From the NCBI GenBank assembly GCA_039714075.1, contig JBDLKA010000013.1, forward strand, positions 1 to 52,876: a DNA stretch of 52,876 nucleotides, read 5' to 3'. Numbering within the stretch: position 1 is the first letter of the stretch; the number at the start of each line of letters is the position of its first letter. Both the position numbers and the translations under genes were made by a program. Shown one piece after another: positions 1,040-51,929 of the stretch. The notes below the pieces were generated by a model. It saw only the letters and a program-made list of their open reading frames with translations, searched no databases and was not told the origin of the DNA. Source of the DNA: Candidatus Krumholzibacteriota bacterium (GTDB lineage Bacteria > Krumholzibacteriota > Krumholzibacteriia > LZORAL124-64-63).

Positions 1040-2953
1040 CTAATCATCCTCGAGGGAAGGGCCGGCGACGCGAATGTCTCCTTTGCGCACCGTCACTCCT
1101 GTCTGATCCAGGTACTCCAGCATGGGGATGCCCAGCTTGCGCGTCAGGCCGCTCACTTCCCGGAAAGTCGCGAATGCCATTTCCGCTTCACCCGCGAAAT
1201 ATTCCCGCAGTTTCTGCAGCAGTTCGCGCCAGGCGGCGGCGGCCACAATGTAGTCGTTGTTGATCGGCACGGCATGCCCGTGGTCGACCAGGTGGCGCAG
1301 GACCTCGACCGTCTTAAAATCCTTCAGGGCCGGGTCCGTGGCCGCAGTTTTGAACGCCGGTGAATCATCGGCCCAGTTGTCCAGCCCCGGCCAGTTCAGG
1401 CCGAAGGTTCCCAACTCAGCCACAGCCTTCGCCAAAGCCCCCGACATGCCCGCGCTCAGCTCCGGACCCTGCTCCGAGGGACCGATGCGATCCCCCACCA
1501 CGGCCCAGGGCGCATCGTCCTGCAGGGCGGTCACGATCTGGTTCCACTCGTTGGCGCCCGCCTTGAACTTGCATTTGCGGCGTGCCTCTTCCTTGGGGAT
1601 GCCGGTCCGCAGGGGAAATTTTCCCGCGTAATCGTCCACCAGGCCGGTAATCTTCCCGGTCAGATCCCCCACCAGTTCCTGATGATAGAGCCGCTTGCCG
1701 ATCTGGACGGCCTGCGGGTCGTCCTGCTGGCCCAGCGCCTCGCCCAGGGACAGGCCTGAGTAACCGGCCTCTTTGAGATTCTGCCGAAAGAGTTCCGCCG
1801 GATCGCCGGATTCCAGAACGTCGAGCATGGCCAGCGCCTTGTCCTCGAACCGCTTGTGTCGTCCCGGCTGGGGATCGAGCACCACCCCGCCCGCGATGCT
1901 GGTGACCGGGGAGTAGAAGCGCAGGACCAGGCGGTCGTCCCGCATGGCCACCAGTTCGTCCTCGAGATGCAGCTGGGCCAGCCCCGTGCGCGAACCGCCG
2001 TCGCCGCCCAGTTCCTTTTCGTCCAGCAGCACGATGCGGCCGAGCACTTCCCGCCCGGCGTGATGGATGTGCAGCCGTTGCCTATTCTTGATGATGCCCT
2101 GGTAGTGGGCCATCATGTTCACGCGGATGTCCAACCGGCGCGTGGTCCGCGCCGCCCCCGCCGCGGCGATCTGGAAGCCGCGCTCGATCTCGTCCTTCTT
2201 GATGCCGTGCAGGGCCAGGGCCAGACGCTGGCCCGAGGCCCCCCGGGGGGCCTTCTGTCCGTGCACCTGGACCTCACGGATACGCACCGGCTTGTGACCC
2301 GGCAGCACCTCCAGCCTGTCCCCGACTTTGACCGCTCCGCCCCAACAGGTCCCCGTCACCACGACGCCGGCGCCGGGCAGGGTGAAAATGCGGTCGACCG
2401 GGAGGCGGAAATCTCCTTCCTCCGCCCGGGCCGGCAAAGCCAGGGCTTCGGCCTTGAGGGCGGCCTTCAGTTCGTCCAGCCCCGTCCCCTGGTGGGCCGA
2501 CACCGGAACAATGGGCTTGCCTTCCAGGAACGTGCCTTCGACCAGTTCCATGGCCTCTTCACTGGCGATGGCGACAAAATCCTCGTCCGCCATGTCGGTC
2601 TTGGTGATCACCACCACGCCGCTTTTCACGCCCAGGGAGTCTAGGATTTCCAGATGTTCGATGGTCTGCGGCATGACGCTCTCGTCGGCCGCGATCACCA
2701 GAAAAGCCAGGTCCACTCCGCCCGCCCCGGAAACCATCTGCTTGACGAACTTCTCGTGGCCGGGCATGTCCACCACGCCCAGCAGCACGCCGTCGCCCAA
2801 ATCGAATTCCGCGAAACCCAGCTCGATGCTGATGCCCCGCTCCTGCTCTTCCTTCAGGCGGTCGGTGTGGGTGCCGGTCAGGGCGGTGATCAGCGCCGTC
2901 TTGCCGTGGTCGACGTGGCCGGCGGCGCCCAGGATGTAGTGGCGGTCGGTCAT
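1040..2953 (-). CDS. selB: Selenocysteine-specific translation elongation factor SelB
   Basis: GHVDHGKT, RGISIELGF, DMPGHEKF and TKTD GTPase motifs; 637 aa; C-terminal winged helix TRKLGIPMLEYLD...RKGDIR typical of the SECIS-binding domain. Confidence 0.95.
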   Translation of the reverse strand: MTDRHYILGAAGHVDHGKTALITALTGTHTDRLKEEQERGISIELGFAEFDLGDGVLLGVVDMPGHEKFVKQMVSGAGGVDLAFLVIAADESVMPQTIEHLEILDSLGVKSGVVVITKTDMADEDFVAIASEEAMELVEGTFLEGKPIVPVSAHQGTGLDELKAALKAEALALPARAEEGDFRLPVDRIFTLPGAGVVVTGTCWGGAVKVGDRLEVLPGHKPVRIREVQVHGQKAPRGASGQRLALALHGIKKDEIERGFQIAAAGAARTTRRLDIRVNMMAHYQGIIKNRQRLHIHHAGREVLGRIVLLDEKELGGDGGSRTGLAQLHLEDELVAMRDDRLVLRFYSPVTSIAGGVVLDPQPGRHKRFEDKALAMLDVLESGDPAELFRQNLKEAGYSGLSLGEALGQQDDPQAVQIGKRLYHQELVGDLTGKITGLVDDYAGKFPLRTGIPKEEARRKCKFKAGANEWNQIVTALQDDAPWAVVGDRIGPSEQGPELSAGMSGALAKAVAELGTFGLNWPGLDNWADDSPAFKTAATDPALKDFKTVEVLRHLVDHGHAVPINNDYIVAAAAWRELLQKLREYFAGEAEMAFATFREVSGLTRKLGIPMLEYLDQTGVTVRKGDIRVAGPSLEDD

Positions 2954-17322: not shown

Positions 17323-17608
17323 TTTTTTACTTCCGTAATTTAAGCAGTTGCGAAACCGGGCGATTTTCAGGTCCGAAACTATTCCGTTCTCCAACAAATA
17401 TATAACTGTTTTTCCTCAGATGCAAAATCAGGCATGAAAACAAAAATCACCTCGAATTAGCCAATTTGTGGCAATAAAATGAATTTCAGGGTTGCCAAAC
17501 CCGGGTGGAGATCCCCATATTTACCCCGGCGGGAGAAGGAACGCCGGTGAGTTCGGCCCCTTGGAGGGAGGTTGGAAGCTCAGACAATTCACGGAGGATT
17601 TTGATATA

Positions 17609-19354
17609 ATGACAGGTAAAGCCCTTACAGCCCTTGGCTTTATTTTAGTTCTTTCTCAAACCTCTTTAATAGCCCACGCGGGCACTCTTTTGGTGCCCGG
17701 GGAATACGCCACCATCGGTGACGCGATGGAAATCTCCCAACCCGGCGACCGCATTGAAGTCTCCCCCGGGGTTTACCGGGAAAATAATCTGGTCATGACC
17801 GAGGGCGTCGTCCTTATCGGCATGGGAACCGGACCCGGGGACGTGGTCCTCGACGGGGGCGGCTCGGGGCGGATCATCCTCTGCGAAAGCATCATCCAAT
17901 CCAGTTATATCGAGAACCTAACTTTGGCCAACGGCCGGGCCTTCGGCGCCTCGAGCTACGACCAGAGCGGCGGCGCCCTGCTGTCCAGCAACAGCAGCCT
18001 GCGCATTTCGAAATGCATTTTCTCGGCCAACGAGGCCGAAAGCCACGGCGGCGCCATTCGCTGCAACAATTCCACGCTTCTGATCAACGACTGCCTGTTT
18101 ACCGGCAACAGCGCCCCCAACGGCGGCGGCGGGGCGGTTGATTGCAGCTACGGATCTTCTCCCCTGTTCCGGAATTGCGACTTCGAGAACAACAGCGCCT
18201 CCTGGGGCGGGGCCTTGTCCTGCCGCGCGGACTCGTCCCCCATGGTCGCCGACAGCCACTTCAAGAACAACACCGCCATGGGCGACCTGGGCTTCGGCGG
18301 GGCCGTGTTTTCCGATTTTCAAGCCACCCCCGTCTTCACCTATTCCACCTTCTCCGGGAATCAAGCCCTCTACGGCGGGGCGCTGGCCAGCTTCCAGGAC
18401 GCGGAAACAAACCTGGAAAACTGCACCGTCACCGGGAATTCGGCCGAATTCAGCGGCGGCGGCCTTTTTTGCCACGAATCGTCGCCGCGGGTGACCGGCT
18501 CCATCATCGCCTTCCAGGAAGGCACCGGCATCGCGGCCCAGGGAGGGGCCGTGCCCATGATTTCCTGCACCGATCTTTTCGGCAACAGCCAGGGAGATTG
18601 GGTGGGGAACATTTCCGATCAGGCCGGTGTCCAGGAAAACCTGTCCGCCGACCCCGTGTTCTGCTCCGAAAACCCCCTCACCGACAACGAGTTTTCCCTC
18701 CAGGACAATTCCCCCTGCGGACCCGAAGTGAATTCCTGCGGCGCCCTGGGCGCCTGGCCCGTCGGCTGTGACGCGGTCGCCGCCCGGGTGACCCTTTTCG
18801 AAGCCGACTGGAGCGGCAGGCACGCCCGGCTTTCCTGGCAGACCCTGTCCAACGGGGAAGCCCCCGTGTTCCGCCTGACCGGCGTCGTGGACGAGGAAGG
18901 CGCCAAGGAGTGGGAAATCCCCTACCAGGACGAGGGCGGCGGATTTTTCGCGGCGGAAGACCAGCAGTCCCGAACCGACAGCGGCAAGCAATACATCTTC
19001 CGCCTGTACCTGGTGGACAATCGTGGCGGGATGTCTCTGCTGGGTGAAACCAAGCTGGTGGCGGTGCCCGATTTTCCGGGTATCAGGGACTTGAAGGCCT
19101 CGCCCAATCCCTTCAACCCCTTGACTTCCATTTCCTTCAACCTCGGCAGTTCCCAGCGGACGCGGGTTTCCATCTATACCGTGGACGGACGCCGGGTCAG
19201 GACCCTGGCCAGCCGCGAGTTCGGCTCCGGGCCCCAGGAAATCAAGTGGGACGGCACCGACGAAAACGGCCGTCATTGCAGCACCGGCGCCTACATCGCC
19301 CTGGTGGAAGGCGAGCGTCAGATGAAAACCATCAAGCTGACCCTGATGAAGTAA
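17609..19354 (+). CDS. Secreted right-handed beta-helix protein with C-terminal FlgD-Ig/T9SS-like domain
   Basis: ATG 17609 behind GGAGG; VPGEYATI..A start; FxxN/GGA repeats; C-terminal PNPFNPLTSISF...WDGTDENG...KLTLMK. Confidence 0.85.
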   Translation: MTGKALTALGFILVLSQTSLIAHAGTLLVPGEYATIGDAMEISQPGDRIEVSPGVYRENNLVMTEGVVLIGMGTGPGDVVLDGGGSGRIILCESIIQSSYIENLTLANGRAFGASSYDQSGGALLSSNSSLRISKCIFSANEAESHGGAIRCNNSTLLINDCLFTGNSAPNGGGGAVDCSYGSSPLFRNCDFENNSASWGGALSCRADSSPMVADSHFKNNTAMGDLGFGGAVFSDFQATPVFTYSTFSGNQALYGGALASFQDAETNLENCTVTGNSAEFSGGGLFCHESSPRVTGSIIAFQEGTGIAAQGGAVPMISCTDLFGNSQGDWVGNISDQAGVQENLSADPVFCSENPLTDNEFSLQDNSPCGPEVNSCGALGAWPVGCDAVAARVTLFEADWSGRHARLSWQTLSNGEAPVFRLTGVVDEEGAKEWEIPYQDEGGGFFAAEDQQSRTDSGKQYIFRLYLVDNRGGMSLLGETKLVAVPDFPGIRDLKASPNPFNPLTSISFNLGSSQRTRVSIYTVDGRRVRTLASREFGSGPQEIKWDGTDENGRHCSTGAYIALVEGERQMKTIKLTLMK

Positions 19355-20470: not shown

Positions 20471-23095
20471 ATGCCAACGATCCAGACTTTCATTGTCACA
20501 CCGAACCTTCCGGAGCCCCTGAAGCCCCTGCTGGACATCGCCCGCAACGTCTGGTGGTCCTGGAACGTGGAAGCCATTTCCCTGCTGCGGCGGGTCGACC
20601 CCGACCTGTGGGACAAACACGAAGGCAACCCGGTGGCCGTCCTGGGTTCCCTGTCCGCCGAACGGGTCAGCGAACTGGAACGCGACAAGGCTTTCCTGGC
20701 CCATCTGGAAAGGGTGCGCAACGACCTGGACCGGTACCTCAACCTCGATTCCTGGTTCGAAGGCGAGCATGAAGACCTAAAAAGCGGCCTGATCGGTTAT
20801 TTCTCCCTGGAGTTCGGTCTCCATGAATCACTGCCCCTGTACTCGGGCGGCCTGGGCATCCTGGCCGGCGACCACCTGAAATCCGCCACCGACCTGGGCC
20901 TGCCCCTGGTGGGGATGGGCCTGGCCTACCAGTACGGTTATTTCCGCCAGTACCTCAACCATGACGGCTGGCAGATGGAAGAGTATTCGGTCAACGATTT
21001 CTACAACATGTCCATGTCCCTGGAAAAGGATCGTGAAGGGAGGGAACGCACCATCGAGGTCCACTACCCCGGGCGGGTGGTGAAGGCCCGGATCTGGCGC
21101 CTCCAGGTGGGGCGCAACCCCCTGTTCCTGCTGGACACGAACATCCCCGAAAACCGGCCCGAGGACCGCGAGCTGACCAGCCGCCTGTACAGCGGCGACA
21201 ACGACATGCGCATCCGGCAGGAAATCCTGCTGGGCATCGGCGGCCTGCGCGCGCTGATCGAGCTCGGTCTCGAGCCCACGGTCTGCCATCTGAACGAAGG
21301 GCACTCCGCATTCCTCGCCCTGGAACGCATCAACCTGCTGATGAAGAACAAGGGCCTGGATTTCGACACCGCCTTCGAGCTGGTGCGCGCCAGCAACGTG
21401 TTCACCACGCACACGCCGGTCCCGGCGGGCAACGATCATTTTCACCCCGACCTGGTCAGGACCTATCTGAAACGCAAGGTCGACGAACTGGGTATCGACA
21501 TGGAACGCCTGCTGGCCCTGGGTCGCCAGGACCCGGACAACAAGGCGGAAACCTTCTGCATGACCGTGCTGGCGCTGCGCCTGAGCCGCTTCGTCAACGG
21601 CGTCAGCGAACTCCATGGGCACGTGTCCCGCAAGATGTGGCAGCAGGTCTGGCCCGAAGCCCCGGCCGAAGAGATCCCCATCACCCACGTGACCAACGGC
21701 ATCCATACCCGCAGTTGGCTGTGCACGGAAATCGCCCGCCTCTACGACCGCTACCTGGGCCCCCGCTGGTACGAGGACCCCACCAACAAGACCCTCTGGG
21801 ACCGGGTGGACCACATCCCCGACGCCGAGCTGTGGCGCTCCCACGAGCGGATGCGGGAACGTCTGGTCGGGTTCGTGCGGCGACGCCTGCGCCGACAGCT
21901 GCGCAACCGCGGCGCCAACCGCGCCTGGATCAAGCAGGCCTCCGAAGTGCTGGATCCCGAAGCGTTGACCATCGGTTTCGCGCGCCGCTTCGCCACCTAC
22001 AAACGGGCCGCCCTGATCCTGAGCGATCCCGCCCGTCTGAGCCGGATCCTGAACAACCCGGACCGTCCGGTCCAACTCATCTTCGCGGGCAAGGCCCACC
22101 CCAAGGACCATCCGGGCAAGGAGTTGATCCGGCAGCTGATCCACCTGGCCGAGCGGGAGGAATTCCGCAAGCGCATCGTCTTTGTCGAGGACTACAACAT
22201 CGAGGTGGCCCGCTACCTGGTGCAGGGAGTGGACATCTGGCTGAACAATCCCCGCCGGCCCCTCGAAGCCAGCGGCACCAGCGGCATGAAGGTCCCCCCC
22301 AACGGGGGCATCAACCTGTCCGTGCTCGACGGCTGGTGGTGCGAAGGCTACCAGCAGGACAACGGCTGGGCCATCGGCGCCGGAGAGGACTACGAGGACC
22401 AGGCCTACCAGGACGACGTGGAAAGCACCGCCCTTTTGGACCTGCTCGAGAACGAGATCGTGCCCACGTTCTACGAACGCAGCAGCGACGACGTGCCCCG
22501 GGAATGGACGCGCATCATGAAGAATTCCATGCGGACGGTGAACGCCGAGTTCAACACCAACCGCATGGTCGAGGAATACACCGAGCGGTTCTACATCCCC
22601 TGCGTCGAAAATGCCGCGCGGTTGAGCGCCAACGACTATGCCCGGGCCAAGGAGCTTGCCGACTGGCGCCGCGGGATCAAGGCCGGGTGGGATAAACTGA
22701 GGATCATGCAGGTCGAAGCCCCGCCGCTTTCGGCCCAACCCATGGGGTCCAACCTGCCGGTCAAGGCGACCGTCCAGCTGGGCAACATCCCGGCGGACGA
22801 AGTGCTGGTCGAGGTTTACCACGGACTGCTGGATTCAGCGGGAGATATCGTCAACGGCGAAACGGCCACCCTGTTCCCCGGTGACATCGGAAATGACGGG
22901 ACCGCTGTCTACACCGGTGACATTCCCTGCCGCCGGGCCGGTCGCCGCGGTTTCACGTTGCGGGCGGTCCCCCGCAAGGAAGGCTACCCCCTGGACAGGT
23001 TCGAGACCGGCCTGGTCTCCTGGTGGGACGATCCCGCGGCCGGCGTGCACGAGGCGGGCGAAAACGCCCCGGGCGTCACCGTTCACCGCGCCTGA
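20471..23095 (+). CDS. glgP: Alpha-glucan (glycogen/maltodextrin) phosphorylase
   Basis: YSGGLGILAGD, HLNEGH, FARRFATYKR, FAGKAHP, EASGTSGMK (PLP lysine); RBS AGGAG. Confidence 0.96.
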   Translation: MPTIQTFIVTPNLPEPLKPLLDIARNVWWSWNVEAISLLRRVDPDLWDKHEGNPVAVLGSLSAERVSELERDKAFLAHLERVRNDLDRYLNLDSWFEGEHEDLKSGLIGYFSLEFGLHESLPLYSGGLGILAGDHLKSATDLGLPLVGMGLAYQYGYFRQYLNHDGWQMEEYSVNDFYNMSMSLEKDREGRERTIEVHYPGRVVKARIWRLQVGRNPLFLLDTNIPENRPEDRELTSRLYSGDNDMRIRQEILLGIGGLRALIELGLEPTVCHLNEGHSAFLALERINLLMKNKGLDFDTAFELVRASNVFTTHTPVPAGNDHFHPDLVRTYLKRKVDELGIDMERLLALGRQDPDNKAETFCMTVLALRLSRFVNGVSELHGHVSRKMWQQVWPEAPAEEIPITHVTNGIHTRSWLCTEIARLYDRYLGPRWYEDPTNKTLWDRVDHIPDAELWRSHERMRERLVGFVRRRLRRQLRNRGANRAWIKQASEVLDPEALTIGFARRFATYKRAALILSDPARLSRILNNPDRPVQLIFAGKAHPKDHPGKELIRQLIHLAEREEFRKRIVFVEDYNIEVARYLVQGVDIWLNNPRRPLEASGTSGMKVPPNGGINLSVLDGWWCEGYQQDNGWAIGAGEDYEDQAYQDDVESTALLDLLENEIVPTFYERSSDDVPREWTRIMKNSMRTVNAEFNTNRMVEEYTERFYIPCVENAARLSANDYARAKELADWRRGIKAGWDKLRIMQVEAPPLSAQPMGSNLPVKATVQLGNIPADEVLVEVYHGLLDSAGDIVNGETATLFPGDIGNDGTAVYTGDIPCRRAGRRGFTLRAVPRKEGYPLDRFETGLVSWWDDPAAGVHEAGENAPGVTVHRA

Positions 23096-24300
23096 TAGCT
23101 GGGCCGATTGCCCCCGTAGGAACCGGCCCGGCTCAACATTTCCGCCATGACTTCCCACTCCGTGGTAGCCGTCCCGGCCGTATTCGCGGCCATGGACCCG
23201 GACCGGTTTTCGGCCTGGACCAGGGCTCTGTAGGACGAATAATTCCCATCCAGTTCGCTGCGCAGCCGGGCTGCCTCTTCGGTCCGTCCCAGTTCCTCGC
23301 ACAATTCCATGGCCCGAATCGCATACTGGGAAGGCGCAGGGTCGAGCCGGTGGGCGCCCTGGGCCAGTTTCAGGGGAATGAGCCGGAATCCGTTTTCCTG
23401 CAGAACGACGCTGCCGCCGTCCATGTGCACGGCCATGGTGGAGGGATCCCAGACCACGAGCATCCCCAGGAGGGTGCACAACAAGGCTGCCGAGTACCAG
23501 TCTCCGCGCATCCGGTGCCGAATGCCCGGCTCGCCCATCATCTGACGGGCGCCTTCGAGCGCCTGGGCGATCCAGCCGATCACACCTGCCAGCAGGATTC
23601 CGGCGGCCAGCATGAATATGATTTCCATGGTCATCGGATTCATTGATCCCGGCCCCGCCGCCTGGTTGCTGGCCCAGATTCCCGGGCCTCCGGCCAGAAT
23701 CATCGCCGCACCGACGATCACCCAGCCCGTCCAGATCACCGCGGCGCCCCGCTTGGCACATCCCGCCATGAGGAGGCCCAGCCCGGGGGCGACCAGTCCG
23801 GTCACGCCCACGGCCCAGGACTTGCGAAAAATCGAGGGCAACCGGTACTGGGGTTGCCGCTCTCCCTGAACGACCAGTTGCGCGGCACGAGCCCAGATGG
23901 AGGAGGCGGTCACCATGACGACGGCCCCAGTCAGAGCCCAGGGCCACAGGGGCCAACCATTGGCGATCAGGTCTAGGATGAGGCCGCGCCCGGCGAACAA
24001 CCCCAGTCCGGCCATGCCGCTGATCAGGCCGGCGAACATCAGACCCTTGCTCCTCCGGTTTCCGGGGTTCAGATGGACGGAAAACGGCCCCAGCAGATAA
24101 GTGAGAAGAATCAGGGGAGCAAATTGCAATTCGCCGCGGGGCGCTTTGCTTTCCCTGGTTGTCCTGGGCTTGGCGGCTTTTTTGGGCGACTTTGCCTTGG
24201 GTGCACCGGCCGCAGTAGTGGCTCGTGGTTCCCTCTGGGGGTTCGTCGGTCCGAGATCTTCCCCCAATTCGATCGAATAAATTTTTTCGTTGTCATACAT
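23083..24300 (-). CDS. Multi-pass membrane protein with short C-terminal TPR-like segment, function unknown
   Basis: 405 aa; K/P/A-rich N-terminus, several hydrophobic segments, C-terminal AMELCEELGRTEEA; RBS GAGGA; 13-bp convergent overlap with glgP. Confidence 0.65.
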   Translation of the reverse strand: MYDNEKIYSIELGEDLGPTNPQREPRATTAAGAPKAKSPKKAAKPRTTRESKAPRGELQFAPLILLTYLLGPFSVHLNPGNRRSKGLMFAGLISGMAGLGLFAGRGLILDLIANGWPLWPWALTGAVVMVTASSIWARAAQLVVQGERQPQYRLPSIFRKSWAVGVTGLVAPGLGLLMAGCAKRGAAVIWTGWVIVGAAMILAGGPGIWASNQAAGPGSMNPMTMEIIFMLAAGILLAGVIGWIAQALEGARQMMGEPGIRHRMRGDWYSAALLCTLLGMLVVWDPSTMAVHMDGGSVVLQENGFRLIPLKLAQGAHRLDPAPSQYAIRAMELCEELGRTEEAARLRSELDGNYSSYRALVQAENRSGSMAANTAGTATTEWEVMAEMLSRAGSYGGNRPSYQAR

Positions 24301-24392
24301 GGCTATGTCCTCAGGGTCTTAAATTGCATGTTTCAGCTGTGTTTTTTCATCCCAAGCTGTTCCATCGCCATATCTTGCAATTAGTATTCCTG

Positions 24393-24749
24393 TTATTTCG
24401 ACGGACCCAGACCGGGAACGATTCCCTGCAGATCCGCCACGTATTGCTTGAAGAGTTTTCTACCGGCGGGCGTGACCCGGACCAGGGTCCGGGGTTTTTT
24501 GCCTTCGAAGGTTTTTTCGATGCTGACGACCCCTCCCTCCTCCAGCTTGCTCAGGTGCACCGAGAGGGTGCCGTCGGTCAGACCGAGGCCGTCGCGCAGG
24601 GCGGTAAAGAGGTGGGCTTTCCTGGTGCGCAGCAAAAAGGACAGGATCAGCAATCTGACCCTGCCGTGAATCAGTGGCGATAAGGGAGCCCGGGTCCGGT
24701 TGCCCGGAGACCCAGGATCGGGATTGCCCGAATGTTCGGTACCCGCCAC
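24393..24749 (-). CDS. Winged-helix transcriptional regulator (HTH_34 / ArsR-MarR-like)
   Basis: LIHGRVRLLILSFL..FTALRDGLGLTDGTLSVHLSKLEEGG.V...KTFEGKKPRT....T.AGR; GTG start behind AAGGAG. Confidence 0.88.
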   Translation of the reverse strand: MAGTEHSGNPDPGSPGNRTRAPLSPLIHGRVRLLILSFLLRTRKAHLFTALRDGLGLTDGTLSVHLSKLEEGGVVSIEKTFEGKKPRTLVRVTPAGRKLFKQYVADLQGIVPGLGPSK

Positions 24750-25227
24750 GACTTCCGGCCTCCTTGCCGGGCGTCATCGCCTCCACTGCGTCCCTCGGCC
24801 ACATCCTTGTGGCCACACGGTGCGAAGTGGCTTCGCTGTGCAGGGACCGGTCGTCCCGGGTTCGAACCCTGAAGTCCCGGTCCCTGTGTCTCAGGAAAGG
24901 CCGCCCTGCCTTTCCTGAAGCGGGTCTGTCTAATGGCCGTGGCCTCCGCCCGCCAGTCGAACTCCCTCGAATCCTTTCGAGTGAAGTTGGCTGACGAGGG
25001 GGCGGCTGGCACCCAGGACCAGTGATCCGCCCCCCGTTTGCCGTTCGGAGATCCTTCTCCGGCCCCATGCGGGGGTCCTTGGCCTAAGCCAATGCTCCGT
25101 CGGGACCCGGCGAAACCATTTCGACAAACCAAACCCGGAATACCAATAATCCCCTCCGGGTCGTTTTTGCGGTGGTCCTTCGTCGCCGGAAATCCTTTCC
25201 GGCCAGGAGGTCCAATGACCAGCCGCA
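24750..25227 (-). ncRNA. Candidate CsrB/Rsm-like structured RNA or long structured 5' leader with multiple AAGGA-loop hairpins
   Basis: About ten consecutive GC-rich stems read by eye; AAGGA(U/G)-loop hairpins at 25185-25203, 25046-25061, 24966-24981, 24797-24814 and 24755-24770; promoter directly upstream; no convincing protein. Confidence 0.65.
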
Positions 25228-25249
25228 GTACTTTAATATTCCAAGTACT
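25227..25249. promoter_or_regulatory. Palindromic operator overlapping the -10 element
   Basis: AGTACTT-taatattcc-AAGTACT inverted repeat. Confidence 0.6.
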
Positions 25250-25261
25250 TTTAAATTTCAA
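25233..25261 (-). promoter_or_regulatory. Sigma70 promoter driving the structured RNA and wHTH gene
   Basis: TTGAAA (25261-25256), 17 bp, TATTAA (25238-25233); predicted +1 near 25226, at the first base pairs of the first RNA stem. Confidence 0.7.
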
Positions 25262-25457
25262 GTAGAAAAAACAATTATTTCAAAGTTTTTTTACGGTTGG
25301 ATAAATGGTCTCGCGGATGGGCAAATTAACTGTCGCAAACGGGGCTTCAGGGCTGGACTTGGAGTCCGGCGGAGTTATCTTGGTCCGGACAGATTCAAGC
25401 GGGCGAACCCTCCCGCAGAACCACCAGTAAGCGAAGAAACCCACGAAGGAGGTTGCC

Positions 25458-26654
25458 ATGAAGGCGGATAAGCTCATCAGGATCGAGGACCAGTACGGGG
25501 CCGACAATTACCATCCCCTGGACATTGTCATCAAGAAGGCCGAAGGAGTCTGGGTCGAAGACGTCGAGGGCAACCGGTTCATGGACTTCCTGGCCGCCTA
25601 CAGCGCCGTGAACCAGGGCCACTGCCATCCCCGGCTGCTGAAGGCCCTGCGCCGCCAGGCCGCCAAGGTCACCCTGACCAGCCGCGCCTTCCGCAACGAC
25701 CAGCTGCCGTTCTTCTGCCAGGAAGTCTGCGAGCTGACCGGTTACGAGAAGGTTCTGCCCATGAATTCGGGCGCCGAGGCCGTCGAGACCGCCATCAAGG
25801 CCGCGCGCAAGTGGGGCGAGAAGATCAAGGGCATCAGGAAGAACAAGGCCGAGATCATCGTCTGCGCCGACAACTTCCACGGACGCACCACGACCATCGT
25901 CGGTTTTTCCACCGAGGCCCAGTACCAGGACGGTTTCGGGCCCTTCACCCCCGGGTTCAAGATCATCCCCTTCGGTGACGCCAAAGCTCTCGAGAAGGCC
26001 ATCAACAAGAACACGGCGGCCTTCATGGTCGAGCCCGTGCAGGGCGAAGCCGGCATCAACGTGCCGCCCAAGGGATTCTTGAAGAAGGCCGCGGCGCTGT
26101 GCAAGAAGAACAACGTGCTGTTCATCGCCGACGAGATCCAGTCGGGTCTGGGCCGCACCGGCAAGATGTTCGCCTTCGAGCACGAAGGCGTGCGGCCGGA
26201 CGGCGTGATCATCGGTAAGGCTTTGAGCGGCGGGTTCTACCCCGTGTCGGCCTTCCTGTCGAACGAGAAAGTCATGAGCGTCTTCAAACCGGGCGACCAC
26301 GGTTCGACCTTCGGCGGCAACCCGCTGGGCATGGCCGTCGCGCGCGAGGCCCTCAAGGTGCTGACCGAGGAAAAACTGGTCCAGAACAGCGCCAAGCTGG
26401 GTCCCTGGTTCATGGGCGAACTCAAGGCCATGAAGTACAAGAGCATCAAGAAGGTGCGCGGCCAGGGGCTGTTCATCGGGCTGGTGCTCGATCGTCCGGC
26501 GCGGCCCTACTGCGAGGCTTTGATGGCCGAGGGGATGCTGTGCAAGGAGACCCACGAGAACGTGATCCGGTTCGCGCCGCCGCTGACGGTTTCGAAGAAG
26601 GAACTGAACATGGCGTTGCGGAAGATCAACAAGGTGTTCAAGATGCTGGGTTGA
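25458..26654 (+). CDS. rocD: Ornithine--oxo-acid aminotransferase
   Basis: YGADNYHPL, DFLAAYSAVNQGHCHP, LTSRAF, PMNSGAEAVETAIK, DEIQSGLGRTG, GKALSGG, HGSTFGGNPL; RBS AAGGAGG. Confidence 0.95.
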   Translation: MKADKLIRIEDQYGADNYHPLDIVIKKAEGVWVEDVEGNRFMDFLAAYSAVNQGHCHPRLLKALRRQAAKVTLTSRAFRNDQLPFFCQEVCELTGYEKVLPMNSGAEAVETAIKAARKWGEKIKGIRKNKAEIIVCADNFHGRTTTIVGFSTEAQYQDGFGPFTPGFKIIPFGDAKALEKAINKNTAAFMVEPVQGEAGINVPPKGFLKKAAALCKKNNVLFIADEIQSGLGRTGKMFAFEHEGVRPDGVIIGKALSGGFYPVSAFLSNEKVMSVFKPGDHGSTFGGNPLGMAVAREALKVLTEEKLVQNSAKLGPWFMGELKAMKYKSIKKVRGQGLFIGLVLDRPARPYCEALMAEGMLCKETHENVIRFAPPLTVSKKELNMALRKINKVFKMLG

Positions 26655-44187: not shown

Positions 44188-44312
44188 CAGGGATTACAGG
44201 CCAAACACAAATTCAGAGGCACAACCAGACAAGAAAATTAGGTGGAAATGGGTGCACGGAATATAGTATAGTTTTTTGATAGGATATATTCATCAAATAA
44301 GGGGAGTTGATT

Positions 44313-46034
44313 GTGACCACGCATAAGACATTTTGTTTAGTCATCGGAATCGCCATCACCGTTCTCTTCGCCCCCACAGCAATGGCCGCCTGGCCCACCG
44401 GTGAAACGACCATCGCCACCAACACCAGCCAGTATCTGCAGGCGGGCGTCATTGATGATGAAACCGGAGGCGCCATCCTCACCTGGTTCAGCTCCAACAT
44501 CCTTATGGCCCAGCGCTTTGCTCCCGACGGGACCATGCTTTGGACTGCGGGAGGGGCCGACGTGGGCGACCTCACCAACGCCTGGCTGTACGGCAGATCA
44601 GTGGTCGCCGACGGGAGCGGCGGATTCATCTACGCCTTTCGGCGGGACAACGACATCTACGCCCAGCATGTGGACAGCACCGGCGCTGCCGACTGGGATC
44701 ATTTGGGGTACGGGTTCCCCAATCCCGTGCCGGTGTGCACCAATCCCGCCAATCAGTATCACCAGAGTATGGACACCGACGGCGCCGGGGGCGTCATCAT
44801 CGCCTGGACGGACTACCGTGACGGCAACATGATCATCCATGCCCAGCATATCGATGCGACCGGCACGCCGCAGTGGACCCTGGACGGGGTTCCCCTCGGC
44901 ACGACGGCACTCAGCCACATCTATCCCCTTGTTCTTGCCGACGGTTACGGCGGGGCGTTCGTCTCCTGTAATGCCTATGTCTCCGGGGGATGGTCGTACG
45001 TCTATTGCCAGCATGTCGATGCGACGGGCACCACCACGTGGGGTCCGGACGGCATCCAGGTTTCCGAGACCCATGCCGGTTCCATTCCGACCGCCACTAA
45101 CGATCACAACTGGAATCTGCTGAGCGACGGGGCCGGTGGCATCCTCTCGACCTGGCGGCACACCCCCTACACGAATCAGGTTTCCATCCAGGCGAGTCGT
45201 CTCACCGCGGCCGGCGCCAGGGTCTGGGCCGACTCGGTCGTGGCCCTGACGCCCGCGTTGCCGAGTGAGATAATCGCGGGCTCGACCACGTCCGCGGCAA
45301 CCGGGGACGGAGGCCTGGTCTCGGGCTGGTCCGAGCCGCGGAACTTCGCCGTGTCCGGTTACGATCTCTTCATCAACCGCCTGGACGGCGCCGGGAATCT
45401 GGTGTGGTCCGCCTCGACGGCCGGAATCCCCCTCTGCACCGAGACCAACAACCAGAACACCCTGGCCCTGTCCGTGGACCCCGCGGGCGTGACTTGGGCG
45501 ACGTGGAAGGACGGTCGTTCCGGTAGCTGGCAACTCTACAGTCAGCATATCGACGCCGGCGGCACGGCTCTGGGCGCGGTGGACGGCGATGCGTTCGACC
45601 TGAATCGCGATCCTGTCACCAGCGGCCCCGTCCAGGTTTCCGGCGGGGTGTTCGTGGCCTATTCCGACAAGCGTAACCCGGCTCCCGACATCACCACCAA
45701 CCTCTACGCCAAGGTTCTTGGGGGCCCGGTTTCCGCCGTGGGGCCGGTCTTTGCCTCGGACCTGACCTTGTCTCCCAACTGGCCCAATCCCTTCAGTTCC
45801 GAGACCAGGATCGGCTATGCCACCGGTCGGCCGGGTTTCATCGACCTGTCGGTCTACGATTTAAGGGGGCGCCGGGTCCGAACCCTGTTCGGCGATGCGG
45901 TCGATTCCGGGGACCACGTTGCCAGGTGGGACGGCCGGGACAGGCAGGGCAATCCCTTGGCGGCCGGGGTGTACTTCGTGCGGTTGCGGTCCGGCGGCGA
46001 GATTGTTTCGCGGCGCATGACGCTTCTTCGCTGA
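44313..46034 (+). CDS. Secreted repeat (probable beta-propeller) protein with C-terminal FlgD-Ig/T9SS-like domain
   Basis: Signal peptide (AMA); repeats DG.GG.II.W.D.R...IYAQHVD..G...W; C-terminal PNPFS..T.I...YDLRGRRVRTL...WDGRD..G..LAAGVYFVRL; GTG 44313 behind GGGGAG (track start 44307). Confidence 0.82.
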   Translation: MTTHKTFCLVIGIAITVLFAPTAMAAWPTGETTIATNTSQYLQAGVIDDETGGAILTWFSSNILMAQRFAPDGTMLWTAGGADVGDLTNAWLYGRSVVADGSGGFIYAFRRDNDIYAQHVDSTGAADWDHLGYGFPNPVPVCTNPANQYHQSMDTDGAGGVIIAWTDYRDGNMIIHAQHIDATGTPQWTLDGVPLGTTALSHIYPLVLADGYGGAFVSCNAYVSGGWSYVYCQHVDATGTTTWGPDGIQVSETHAGSIPTATNDHNWNLLSDGAGGILSTWRHTPYTNQVSIQASRLTAAGARVWADSVVALTPALPSEIIAGSTTSAATGDGGLVSGWSEPRNFAVSGYDLFINRLDGAGNLVWSASTAGIPLCTETNNQNTLALSVDPAGVTWATWKDGRSGSWQLYSQHIDAGGTALGAVDGDAFDLNRDPVTSGPVQVSGGVFVAYSDKRNPAPDITTNLYAKVLGGPVSAVGPVFASDLTLSPNWPNPFSSETRIGYATGRPGFIDLSVYDLRGRRVRTLFGDAVDSGDHVARWDGRDRQGNPLAAGVYFVRLRSGGEIVSRRMTLLR

Positions 46035-50221: not shown

Positions 50222-50465
50222 GATCAGTCATCCGGTTCCCAGGGGTCTTGAAAACGAAACGACTTCGAAATTGGGGATTACATTGAGTATAGCAAATCAA
50301 TTGCCTGCGGGCAATTCAGACAATTTGACAGCTCAAAATCAATGTTGATATAATCAACTCTTCCTTTGGGATTGGTGGGTGGCATTTCGTCGTCGTGGTG
50401 CAATGATTCATTGCTCCAGCACCCCTGATCATCAGAACCCTGCTCGACAACATCGGAGTTTTGAC

Positions 50466-51929
50466 GTGAAGAACCTCCTCGCCCTCTGTCTTGTGCTCAT
50501 CCCCCAGCTTGTTTTTTCCCAAACCGATGTCAGCGGCAACCAGTCCGGTACCTGGACCGCCGCCGCTTCGCCCTATCGTGTCATCGGTGAGATCGTGGTG
50601 CCCGGCGGCCAGACGCTGATCATCGAACCTGGTGTGGAAGTCAATTTCCAGGACCACTATAAATTCACGGTCAACGGTTACCTGGAGGCGGTCGGGGCGG
50701 AAAACGATTCCATCTATTTCACCACGGACATCCCCGCTACCGGCTGGGGCGGCATTCGCATAGACTCCACCGACATCAGCCAACTGGGTTACTGCCGGAT
50801 CGAATACGGCAAGACCGCCGGTGAATTCCCCGACATGCACGGCGGCGGGTTGGCCCTGCTGGGGTCCGACGCCGTGGTTTCCAACTGTGTTTTTGCGGAC
50901 AACGACGCCACGGCCGACGACCTGGGTATGGGGGGCGCGGTGTATTGCATCAGTACCGGAAGCGGCTCCGGACCGCTGACTCGTTTTACGGATTGCCGGT
51001 TCATTCGCAATCACTGCTACGGTGAAGGCGGGGCCATCAAATTCACGGGCGACATGAACACCGAAATCACGAACTGCGAGTTCATTCAGAATGATTGCAA
51101 TTATGGAGGGGGCGCCATTTCCTGCTATTCGATTTACGGGACGAAACTGACCAGCTGCCTATTTGTCGACAACTACACGATGCACGGTGCCGGTGGCGCT
51201 CTGAATACACTCGGCAGCGGCAATGTGCTGTACCTGGCCAACTGCACCATTACCGGGAACACCGCCGTTACCGGTGATGGCGGCGCCGTCAATCTGGCTT
51301 ACGCCGAGGCCTTCATCGCCAATACCATCGTGTATGACAACCCTGGTATGTTCAGCGACGACATCAACCTGGATTTTGGAGGTTTCGCCGAAATCCACTT
51401 CAGCAATCTGACCATGCCGGGGGGTGCGACCGGTGCCAACAACATCGATGTCGACCCCCAGTTTGTCGACGCGGCCAACTACGACTTCCATCTGGCCGAA
51501 ACTTCGGACTGCGTCAATGCCGGTACGGATTACATCGTTCTCAATGGCGTGACGCTGGTTGATCTGGCGCCGGGGGAGTACTGCGACACGGCGCCGGACA
51601 TGGGCGTGTACGAATTCTGTTCCGCGTCCGGGGTGGAGGACCGCTCGTTGTCCCTGTTCGAGGTGGACCAGAACCATCCCAACCCGTTCAGCATCCGCAC
51701 GGCCGTCAATTACCGGCTGGCCACCGATGTGTTCGTCTCGGCCAAGGTATACGACCTCCGCGGGCATGAGATCCGGACTTTGCTGGGCACCAACCAGGCG
51801 GCTGGACCTTATTCGGTTTTCTGGAACGGTTTGAACAACTCCGGGCAGAAAGTCAGCCAGGGTCTGTATTTTTTACGGTTGCAGGCCGGGGATGAAGTGC
51901 GCAGCGTGCGGATGTTGCTGACGGATTAG
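50466..51929 (+). CDS. Secreted right-handed beta-helix protein with C-terminal FlgD-Ig/T9SS-like domain
   Basis: GTG 50466 behind GGAG; GTWTAAASPY.V.G..V..G.TLIIEPGV, FxxN/GGA repeats, DPQFVD; C-terminal QNHPNPFS..T...YDLRG..IRTL..WNG. Confidence 0.85.
   Translation: MKNLLALCLVLIPQLVFSQTDVSGNQSGTWTAAASPYRVIGEIVVPGGQTLIIEPGVEVNFQDHYKFTVNGYLEAVGAENDSIYFTTDIPATGWGGIRIDSTDISQLGYCRIEYGKTAGEFPDMHGGGLALLGSDAVVSNCVFADNDATADDLGMGGAVYCISTGSGSGPLTRFTDCRFIRNHCYGEGGAIKFTGDMNTEITNCEFIQNDCNYGGGAISCYSIYGTKLTSCLFVDNYTMHGAGGALNTLGSGNVLYLANCTITGNTAVTGDGGAVNLAYAEAFIANTIVYDNPGMFSDDINLDFGGFAEIHFSNLTMPGGATGANNIDVDPQFVDAANYDFHLAETSDCVNAGTDYIVLNGVTLVDLAPGEYCDTAPDMGVYEFCSASGVEDRSLSLFEVDQNHPNPFSIRTAVNYRLATDVFVSAKVYDLRGHEIRTLLGTNQAAGPYSVFWNGLNNSGQKVSQGLYFLRLQAGDEVRSVRMLLTD

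Follow-up and report, generated by a model that had tools for sequence, protein, structure and literature searches.

To our knowledge, nearly all RNAs that antagonize CsrA, and nearly all of its well-mapped targets with multiple sites, come from Gammaproteobacteria, and elsewhere CsrA is thought to be held in check by the protein FliW. Two kinds of RNA bound by CsrA-type proteins provide the closest comparisons for the element treated here. CsrA-repressed mRNA leaders, such as those of Escherichia coli glgC and pgaA and Bacillus subtilis hag, have several GGA sites each, with ANGGAN hexaloops and with a high-affinity hairpin-loop site upstream of another site overlapping with the Shine-Dalgarno (SD) sequence. 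The sponge small RNAs (sRNAs), represented in Rfam by the CsrB, CsrC, RsmX, RsmY and RsmZ families, display many GGA-loop hairpins on changing stems and have a strong promoter. We describe here a structured 5' leader RNA that lies directly before a gene for a winged helix-turn-helix (wHTH) regulator in a Candidatus Krumholzibacteriota bacterium (assembly GCA_039714075.1, contig JBDLKA010000013.1; the window below is the whole analysed stretch of 52,876 nt), and which we tentatively read as a target of a CsrA-type protein. The leader is previously undescribed and is found across the uncultured class Krumholzibacteriia. Its parts, with helix coordinates on the window taken from alignment columns, are these:

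25233 to 25261, minus strand: putative sigma-70-type promoter, read by eye, with TTGAAA at 25256-25261, a 17-nt spacer and TATTAA at 25233-25238
25243 to 25250, no strand: perfect 8-nt palindrome in the promoter spacer
25227 to 25232, no strand: half-related 6-nt palindrome over the presumed transcription start
24750 to 25227, minus strand: structured 5' leader RNA of about 478 nt, supported by its fold z score, its presence in relatives and its consensus fold
25173 to 25221, minus strand: H1, a 5' stem around the hairpin 25186-25202, with loop AAGGAU at 25192-25197 (consensus fold)
25132 to 25162, minus strand: H2, a hairpin in which columns 72-77 of alignment A5 pair with columns 129-134, with compensatory changes in 3 of 6 pairs
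24923 to 25130, minus strand: domain closed by the long-range helix 25126-25130/24923-24927 and enclosing the core, P6 and one more stem
24993 to 25115, minus strand: universally conserved core, from covariation and covariance model R1
25108 to 25111 with 25040 to 25043, minus strand: core helix P1, which closes a four-way junction
25073 to 25108, minus strand: core helix P2, which encloses an invariant single-stranded G-A-N-G-G-A-G-C (25094-25101) and an optional hairpin
25064 to 25072, minus strand: core P3, a short hairpin
25046 to 25061, minus strand: core hairpin P4, with an ANGGAN loop at 25051-25056 and, in the window, a perfect 5-bp stem
24997 to 25035, minus strand: core P5/P5b, a long hairpin after the junction, with loop UCCUGGGUG
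25008 to 25020, minus strand: the P5b loop, which contains GUCCU, complementary to AGGAU and AGGAG loops
24962 to 24986, minus strand: hairpin P6, with an AAGGAU loop at 24971-24976 on a perfect 5-bp stem
24892 to 24917, minus strand: hairpin H8, with loop AGGGCG in a GGC...GCC frame (consensus fold)
24841 to 24886, minus strand: H9, a long hairpin with a 10-bp base and compensatory changes in 3 of 10 pairs
24798 to 24813, minus strand: hairpin H10, with an AAGGAU loop at 24803-24808, a perfect 7-bp stem and the context ACAAGGAUGU
24755 to 24770, minus strand: SD hairpin CCGGC-AAGGAG-GCCGG, with a 5-bp stem and the loop word starting at 24765, 9 nt before the GTG
24393 to 24749, minus strand: wHTH regulator gene, 118 amino acids (aa), with a GTG start at 24749

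A sequence-only reading of the window had drawn attention to the region as a chain of stems that carry the same GGA-type loop, and the GGA hairpins that it listed were all found at their minus-strand coordinates, together with the degenerate GGC-AGGGCG-GCC hairpin at 24892-24917 and ACAAGGATGT, which lies within the hairpin whose AAGGAT loop starts at 24808. The comparison with shuffled sequence that it proposed gave a clear result: the minus strand of 24750-25227 has a minimum free energy (MFE) of -238.4 kcal/mol, while 100 dinucleotide-preserving shuffles gave a mean of -200.5 and a standard deviation of 7.0 (z = -5.41), and none of the 100 was as stable as the native sequence. Five GGA hairpins with perfect stems are present in the window leader, which thus has the multiple GGA loops of CsrA-binding RNAs; among them is the 7-bp hairpin in H1, in which the AAGGAT starting at 25197 sits. 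In the whole 52.9-kb window, a search for ANGGAN hexaloops closed by at least 4 stem pairs gives 6 hairpins on the plus and 7 on the minus strand, and 4 of these 7 fall in the leader stretch of about 480 nt, as do 4 of the 19 minus-strand AAGGAT words (8.3 per kb versus 0.36 per kb). This clustering of ANGGAN hairpins and AAGGAT words exceeds chance. H8 is a look-alike of the SD hairpin frame without the GGA, and its loop reads AUGGUG in one clade of relatives.

Database searching with the wHTH protein gives 293 relatives at E <= 0.001, and the few named ones are from Candidatus Krumholzibacteria. A profile scan with these relatives, keeping one genome per species, gave 58 loci (L001-L058), most of them in records titled Candidatus Krumholzibacteriia metagenome-assembled genomes (MAGs), in line with the earlier remark that the lineage is little explored; others had been submitted as Fibrobacteraceae, Gemmatimonas, Latescibacterota and Kiritimatiellae. 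Positions 24640-25300 (minus strand) of the window have a blastn match in 55 of the 58 loci. Identity is 83-87% across the entire leader in six loci; in the most distant ones nothing beyond the promoter and some 120 nt of sequence (25113-24996) still matches. Between the -10 box and the start codon, the leader spans 241-541 nt (57 loci; L046 is cut by the contig end), and the RNA is always coupled to the wHTH gene.

An open frame of 196 aa (24671-25261, minus strand) runs through the region, and the sequence-only reading had itself pointed out that the RNA interpretation would suffer if this frame proved to be a conserved protein. It is not conserved. Neither the 196-aa open reading frame (ORF) nor another one of 202 aa has a Pfam match, and the sense frame placed at the equivalent offset from the leader start is stop-free in none of the six closest relatives, L002 alone having a stop-free frame, which is another one. 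All 28 runs of insertions or deletions in the leader among these six relatives are 1-2 nt long, and substitutions in the 196-aa frame are distributed as 97/88/127 over the three codon positions. With the frame lost, the length varying as widely as it does and the structure covarying as described below, the possibility that the region is coding, or that the hairpins arise by chance from high G+C content, is refuted, and we give it practically no weight.

The four-way-junction core is conserved universally. Its structure was set by hand on a sequence-only MAFFT alignment of 54 sequences (A3), in which 86.8% of the cells fall in standard pairs and 22 of the 35 pairs have changed on both sides. 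None of 500 shuffles reached any of the observed measures, and sliding the 3' pairing partners by 1-3 columns left only 39-55% of the cells paired. In the model-fitted alignment A4, 94.5% of the cells are paired (40-57% in the slid controls) and compensatory change is seen in 29 of 34 pairs; this realignment is biased toward the covariance model, and the A3 counts are therefore given alongside. RNAalifold on the plain MAFFT core alignment recovered merely 11 pairs because insertions and deletions shift the columns. The hand-structured alignment was used to build the covariance model R1, which was searched over the window and the 58 loci (616,287 bases). It gave a single strong match in the window and one each in 57 of the 58 loci, including four that were outside the seed (L031, L035, L037 and L039, with E values from 4.9e-11 to 5.9e-07); beyond these core matches there was one weak match in L019 (E = 0.3) and nothing more in the 616,287 bases. 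The stems of the core thus covary among relatives, as had been proposed as a check.

Covariation is not confined to the core. RNAalifold on 20 long-form leaders predicted 89 pairs, with compensatory changes in 38, and a second long-range helix between 25169-25171 and 24778-24780. In the helix that closes the domain 24923-25130, both sides of the A5 pairs 139/359 and 140/358 have changed, in 4 and 7 of 20 sequences, respectively. The loop-closing pair of P6 is evenly divided between A-U and C-G (10 each of 20 sequences), and one pair of the P4 stem is A-U in 32 sequences and G-C in 25. The leader is real as a structured RNA: it is conserved and its stems covary.

While the stems change, the loops follow a strict pattern. 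Among the 58 aligned cores, the first position of the P4 loop is A in 54 and the GGA is present in all 58, and the second position (A in 40, C in 10, U in 5, G in 3) and the last (U in 33, A in 16, G in 5, C in 4) vary, which is the ANGGAN rule of CsrA-binding RNAs: A and GGA are kept and the N positions are free to vary. In the junction element, G-A-N-G-G-A-x-C, the six named positions are invariant in 58 of 58 cores, and the N is C in 45, U in 8, A in 4 and G in 1. The pattern extends to the leaders as a whole: of the hairpin loops of 3-10 nt in the MFE folds of 58 leaders, 251 of 567 contain GGA, compared to 242 of 2097 in dinucleotide shuffles. The base two positions before the GGA is A in 205 of these 251 loops, and the base between is A in 146, C in 60, G in 25 and U in 20. 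H1 carries AAGGAU, AUGGAU, AAGGAA or AGGGAA on differing stems among relatives, and H10 carries AAGGAU, ACGGAU, AUGGAU or AGGGAU. GGA hairpins appear and disappear between clades, and the shortest leaders (about 240-260 nt) are hardly more than a string of GGA sites with the SD hairpin last. What the sequence-only reading had seen within one leader, a common loop on unrelated stems, therefore applies to the family, with A and GGA fixed and N free. The analysis establishes the RNA, its fold, its conservation, its loop grammar and the placement of the SD sequence, and the existence of this RNA family is close to certain.

The size of the leader, its multi-helix junction with invariant bases, its covarying long-range helices, its cis position before a gene and the SD sequence in a hairpin are all shared with large structured RNAs and riboswitch-type leaders. 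The leader might then be a self-contained riboregulator, either a riboswitch-like ligand sensor or a fixed tertiary fold, in which the SD hairpin would be the expression platform; contacts between RNA segments would be made by the GGA loops and the G-A-N-GGA-G-C junction, and the GUCCU of P5b, for example, could mask the SD by a loop-loop interaction. The invariant junction nucleotides and long-range helices agree with such a role, as does the P5b loop, which is UCCUGGGUG in 39 of the 58 cores. Both the GUCCU of this loop and its possible AGGAU-type partners are invariant. However, the second position of the GGA loops varies freely, which fits protein recognition of the A and the GGA better than base pairing, and the GGA hairpins differ between clades in number (2-7 per leader in MFE folds) and position. 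Most of the 19 sequences without UCCUGGGUG carry a GGA in the P5b loop, which leaves no fixed kissing pair. The invariant bases, unlike those of riboswitch-type leaders, are nearly all of the A-N-GGA type and repeated in loops, which indicates a protein partner. No alternative pairing with covariation was found in the leader, it has neither a candidate ligand nor an Rfam match, and the downstream gene, encoding a transcription factor, hints at no ligand. We consider a riboregulator of this kind unlikely.

The 118-aa ORF after the leader matches Pfam HTH_34 (PF13601, E = 2.4e-23), and its N-terminus, the first residues included, is common to the homologs. By sequence, the nearest solved structure is 1ub9 (PH1061), and the protein also resembles MarR-type regulators. 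Since the hairpin 24755-24770 lies 9 nt before this conserved GTG-started ORF, its AAGGAGG is the SD sequence of the wHTH gene, spanning the loop and the 3' arm, and the region upstream is the 5' leader. The frame GGC-A[A/G]GGAG-GCC is present in 56 of the 58 leaders, 2-10 nt before the start codon, and its outer pairs covary; the two leaders without it probably have misassigned start codons. A GGA hairpin over the SD is what CsrA-repressed leaders have. Most loci use GTG as the start codon, a weak start after a perfect AAGGAGG, and a few use ATG or TTG.

The likeness of AAGGA and AAGGAG to SD sequences, and the occurrence of the true SD in the same hairpin frame, raise another explanation, in which the GGA loops would be standby or decoy sites for the 3' end of 16S rRNA that load or trap the 30S subunit. 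However, ACGGA, AUGGA and AGGGA are common, 105 of the 251 loops have a base other than A directly before the GGA, and these variants would leave only 3-4 pairs with the anti-SD sequence. A role as 30S decoys thus appears very improbable.

The sequence-only reading had left open whether the RNA is a Csr-type sRNA or a leader; the leader part of that proposal stands and the free sRNA part does not, with the SD sequence placed in the last GGA hairpin and no conserved terminator. Csr/Rsm sponges are independent transcripts with their own terminators, whereas this RNA runs into a coding gene, and no terminator-like site occurs between the last hairpin and the start codon. The sole terminator-like site on the minus strand, 24640-24665 with a T-run, falls within coding sequence, in the conserved HGRVRLLILS stretch. 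The T-run recurs in 2 of 41 loci examined, and a free sRNA ending there was rejected on these two grounds; the hairpin is probably a by-product of the RVRLLILSFLL codons.

No Rfam family fits the leader, in agreement with the expectation of a new family. A cmscan of 24000-26000 at E <= 1 gave three chance-level matches to unrelated families, and at gathering scores the whole window gave none, CsrB, RsmY and RsmZ included. The covariance models of the Csr/Rsm families (CsrB, CsrC, RsmX, RsmY and PrrB/RsmZ) do not match it, and it belongs to no Csr/Rsm sRNA family nor to any other Rfam family. ARAGORN found no tRNA or transfer-messenger RNA in the window. In the literature searched, with subscription journals and bioRxiv supplements outside the search, no structured RNA was described in the Krumholzibacteria lineage; for Krumholzibacteria and CsrA the protein alone was treated, and for Krumholzibacteria and riboswitch nothing was found.

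Transcription of the leader probably starts at about 25226-25230, judging from the promoter-like elements at 25233-25261. A T-run (25266-25271) lies just upstream of them, and a strict consensus promoter scan did not report the site. The layout of T-run, TTGAAA or TTGACA, spacer, and TATTAA or TATAAT recurs among the loci (44 loci and the window by a first pattern, which put two of 46 loci out of register, and the rest separately, with the exception of L046, where the contig is cut), and by blastn the promoter stretch retains about 80-87% identity even in the most distant loci. Of 45 correctly registered promoter rows, 32 have the palindrome in the spacer without change and 13 have it with one mismatch. 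We infer that this palindrome and the half-related one over the presumed start are candidate operators for autoregulation by a dimer of the wHTH protein.

The coupling of the RNA to the wHTH gene in all cases and the repeated, conserved GGA motif could also mean that the partner is some other RNA-binding protein, be it a lineage-specific factor, the wHTH product itself in autoregulation, or an ANTAR-type antiterminator. The wHTH protein is, by sequence, an ordinary MarR/ArsR-like DNA-binding fold, however, and the promoter palindromes already give it a DNA route to autoregulation. ANTAR targets consist of two adjacent hexaloop hairpins, the second of which overlaps a terminator, and their hexaloops begin with A and have G as the fourth base, with G3 and A5 not known to be required. 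In the leader, by contrast, G3 and A5 of the loops are invariant, no conserved terminator follows any hairpin pair, and no relevant Rfam match was obtained at E <= 1. A partner of this kind is possible but doubtful.

We favour CsrA-type translational control of the wHTH mRNA, to which we assign a probability of roughly 45%, because the loop grammar matches published CsrA and RsmE sites and the SD sequence lies in such a loop. RsmE contacts the conserved A and the GGA of the ANGGAN hexaloop, and the N positions vary (PMC7652899, in the part drawn on here). The SELEX consensus that the same source gives for CsrA is RUACARGGAUGU (PMC7652899), beside which H10 of the window reads ACAAGGAUGU. For glgC, the source describes a mechanism with a high-affinity hairpin and a second site over the SD (PMC7652899). 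In the leader, the fold acts as a scaffold: the four-way-junction core, the long hairpin and the long-range helices display several hairpins with A-N-G-G-A-N hexaloops, the last of which holds the SD sequence 6-10 nt ahead of the weak GTG. A dimeric CsrA/RsmA-type protein would most likely bind the GGA loops. Held by the upstream high-affinity hairpins, the dimer would reach across to the SD hairpin and keep the 30S subunit off, and in this way control how much of the wHTH mRNA is translated and probably how stable it is, as described for the glgC leader. The leader, which has 2-7 such loops and follows a near-consensus promoter, could additionally act as a sponge within the mRNA that titrates the protein, a plausible extra function of a multi-site leader. 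Both the identity of the bound protein and the direction of regulation are read here from the likeness to known sites.

In its construction at least, the leader resembles CsrA-repressed leaders and shares features with Csr sponges. Compared to the leaders of glgC, pgaA and hag, it is much longer (about 480 nt) and far more structured, with the four-way junction and the long-range helices, and its stems are longer and GC-rich. It is also one RNA family across the retrieved loci, its binding is predicted, and its lineage belongs to the Fibrobacteres-Chlorobi-Bacteroidetes (FCB) group, for which no Csr target was described in the literature searched. Compared to sponges of the CsrB and RsmZ type, it has a complex conserved core and long-range helices, and its host lies outside the Gammaproteobacteria.

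CsrA homologs are reported in Krumholzibacteriota in the part of PMC13443453 consulted here, and one Krumholzibacteriota MAG is described as having flagellar and chemotaxis genes (PMC10936416, likewise in the part consulted). Several observations weigh against CsrA-type control. The Krumholzibacteriota CsrAs were mostly predicted to be non-functional in a B. subtilis hag assay, and csrA is present in merely about 30% of bacterial genomes, according to the same part of PMC13443453. A tblastn search with E. coli CsrA (E <= 10) found no csrA in the window and the 58 loci, which says little since these 616,287 bases are well under the sequence of one genome. Most hairpins selected by SELEX had four pairs or fewer (PMC7652899), whereas the stems of the leader have 5-8 pairs and are GC-rich. 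Finally, the invariant junction core, the long-range helices and the conserved UCCUGGGUG loop with its GUCCU stand out; a simple sponge would need neither the core nor the loop, which suggests an additional or different function. Together with the long GC-rich stems, these features give some weight to a riboswitch-like or loop-loop mechanism or to another protein partner.

The remaining features of the window concern the surroundings of the leader-wHTH unit and genes farther away:

25458 to 26654, plus strand: class-III aminotransferase gene, divergent from the leader-wHTH unit
20471 to 23095, plus strand: alpha-glucan phosphorylase gene (Pfam Phosphorylase and DUF3417), convergent
23083 to 24300, minus strand: 405-aa ORF directly downstream of the wHTH gene, with no Pfam match
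1040 to 2953, minus strand: gene for a SelB-type selenocysteine elongation factor
17492 to 19354, 44307 to 46034 and 50379 to 51929, plus strand: three large proteins ending in a FlgD_ig-like domain

The divergent aminotransferase is present in 55 of the 58 loci and the convergent alpha-glucan phosphorylase in 40. It is suggestive that a glycogen-type phosphorylase adjoins a candidate target of a "carbon storage regulator". The 405-aa ORF, in which several long hydrophobic stretches can be seen by eye, occurs in the six closest loci alone, at 53-70% identity. The rest of the window is ordinary chromosome, with genes for SelB, a 5-enolpyruvylshikimate-3-phosphate (EPSP)-synthase-family enzyme, PrmC, RF1, Rho, an extracytoplasmic function (ECF) sigma factor and a histidine kinase with a sigma-54 activator; no flagellar gene and no csrA are found in it. 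The SelB-type gene means that the organism probably uses selenocysteine, and in the window neither a selenocysteine insertion sequence (SECIS) element nor a tRNA-Sec was found. The three FlgD_ig-like proteins, two of which carry Chlam_PMP or beta-helix repeats, look like a secreted or surface family sharing a C-terminal tag.

Whatever its partner, the leader represents a new family of large structured RNAs, some 240-540 nt in length and built on a junction core and long-range helices, for which a seed alignment and a covariance model are ready for Rfam-style curation. It places a small transcription factor under heavy post-transcriptional control across the retrieved loci. In the most far-reaching case, which we think unlikely, it would extend Csr-type RNA partners beyond Proteobacteria for the first time, as a class-wide mRNA that titrates CsrA or a new GGA-loop binder while gating translation of the wHTH gene, with the core adding a ligand or anti-SD-loop input. 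A dual-function Csr leader, if true, would bear on whether FliW and RNA antagonists of CsrA coexist in any species, a question raised in the part of PMC7652899 drawn on here. As a covariation-supported RNA family with CsrA-type loop grammar in an uncultured class of the FCB group, the leader would offer a specific case in which Csr-type riboregulation can be tested in a new region of the bacterial tree.

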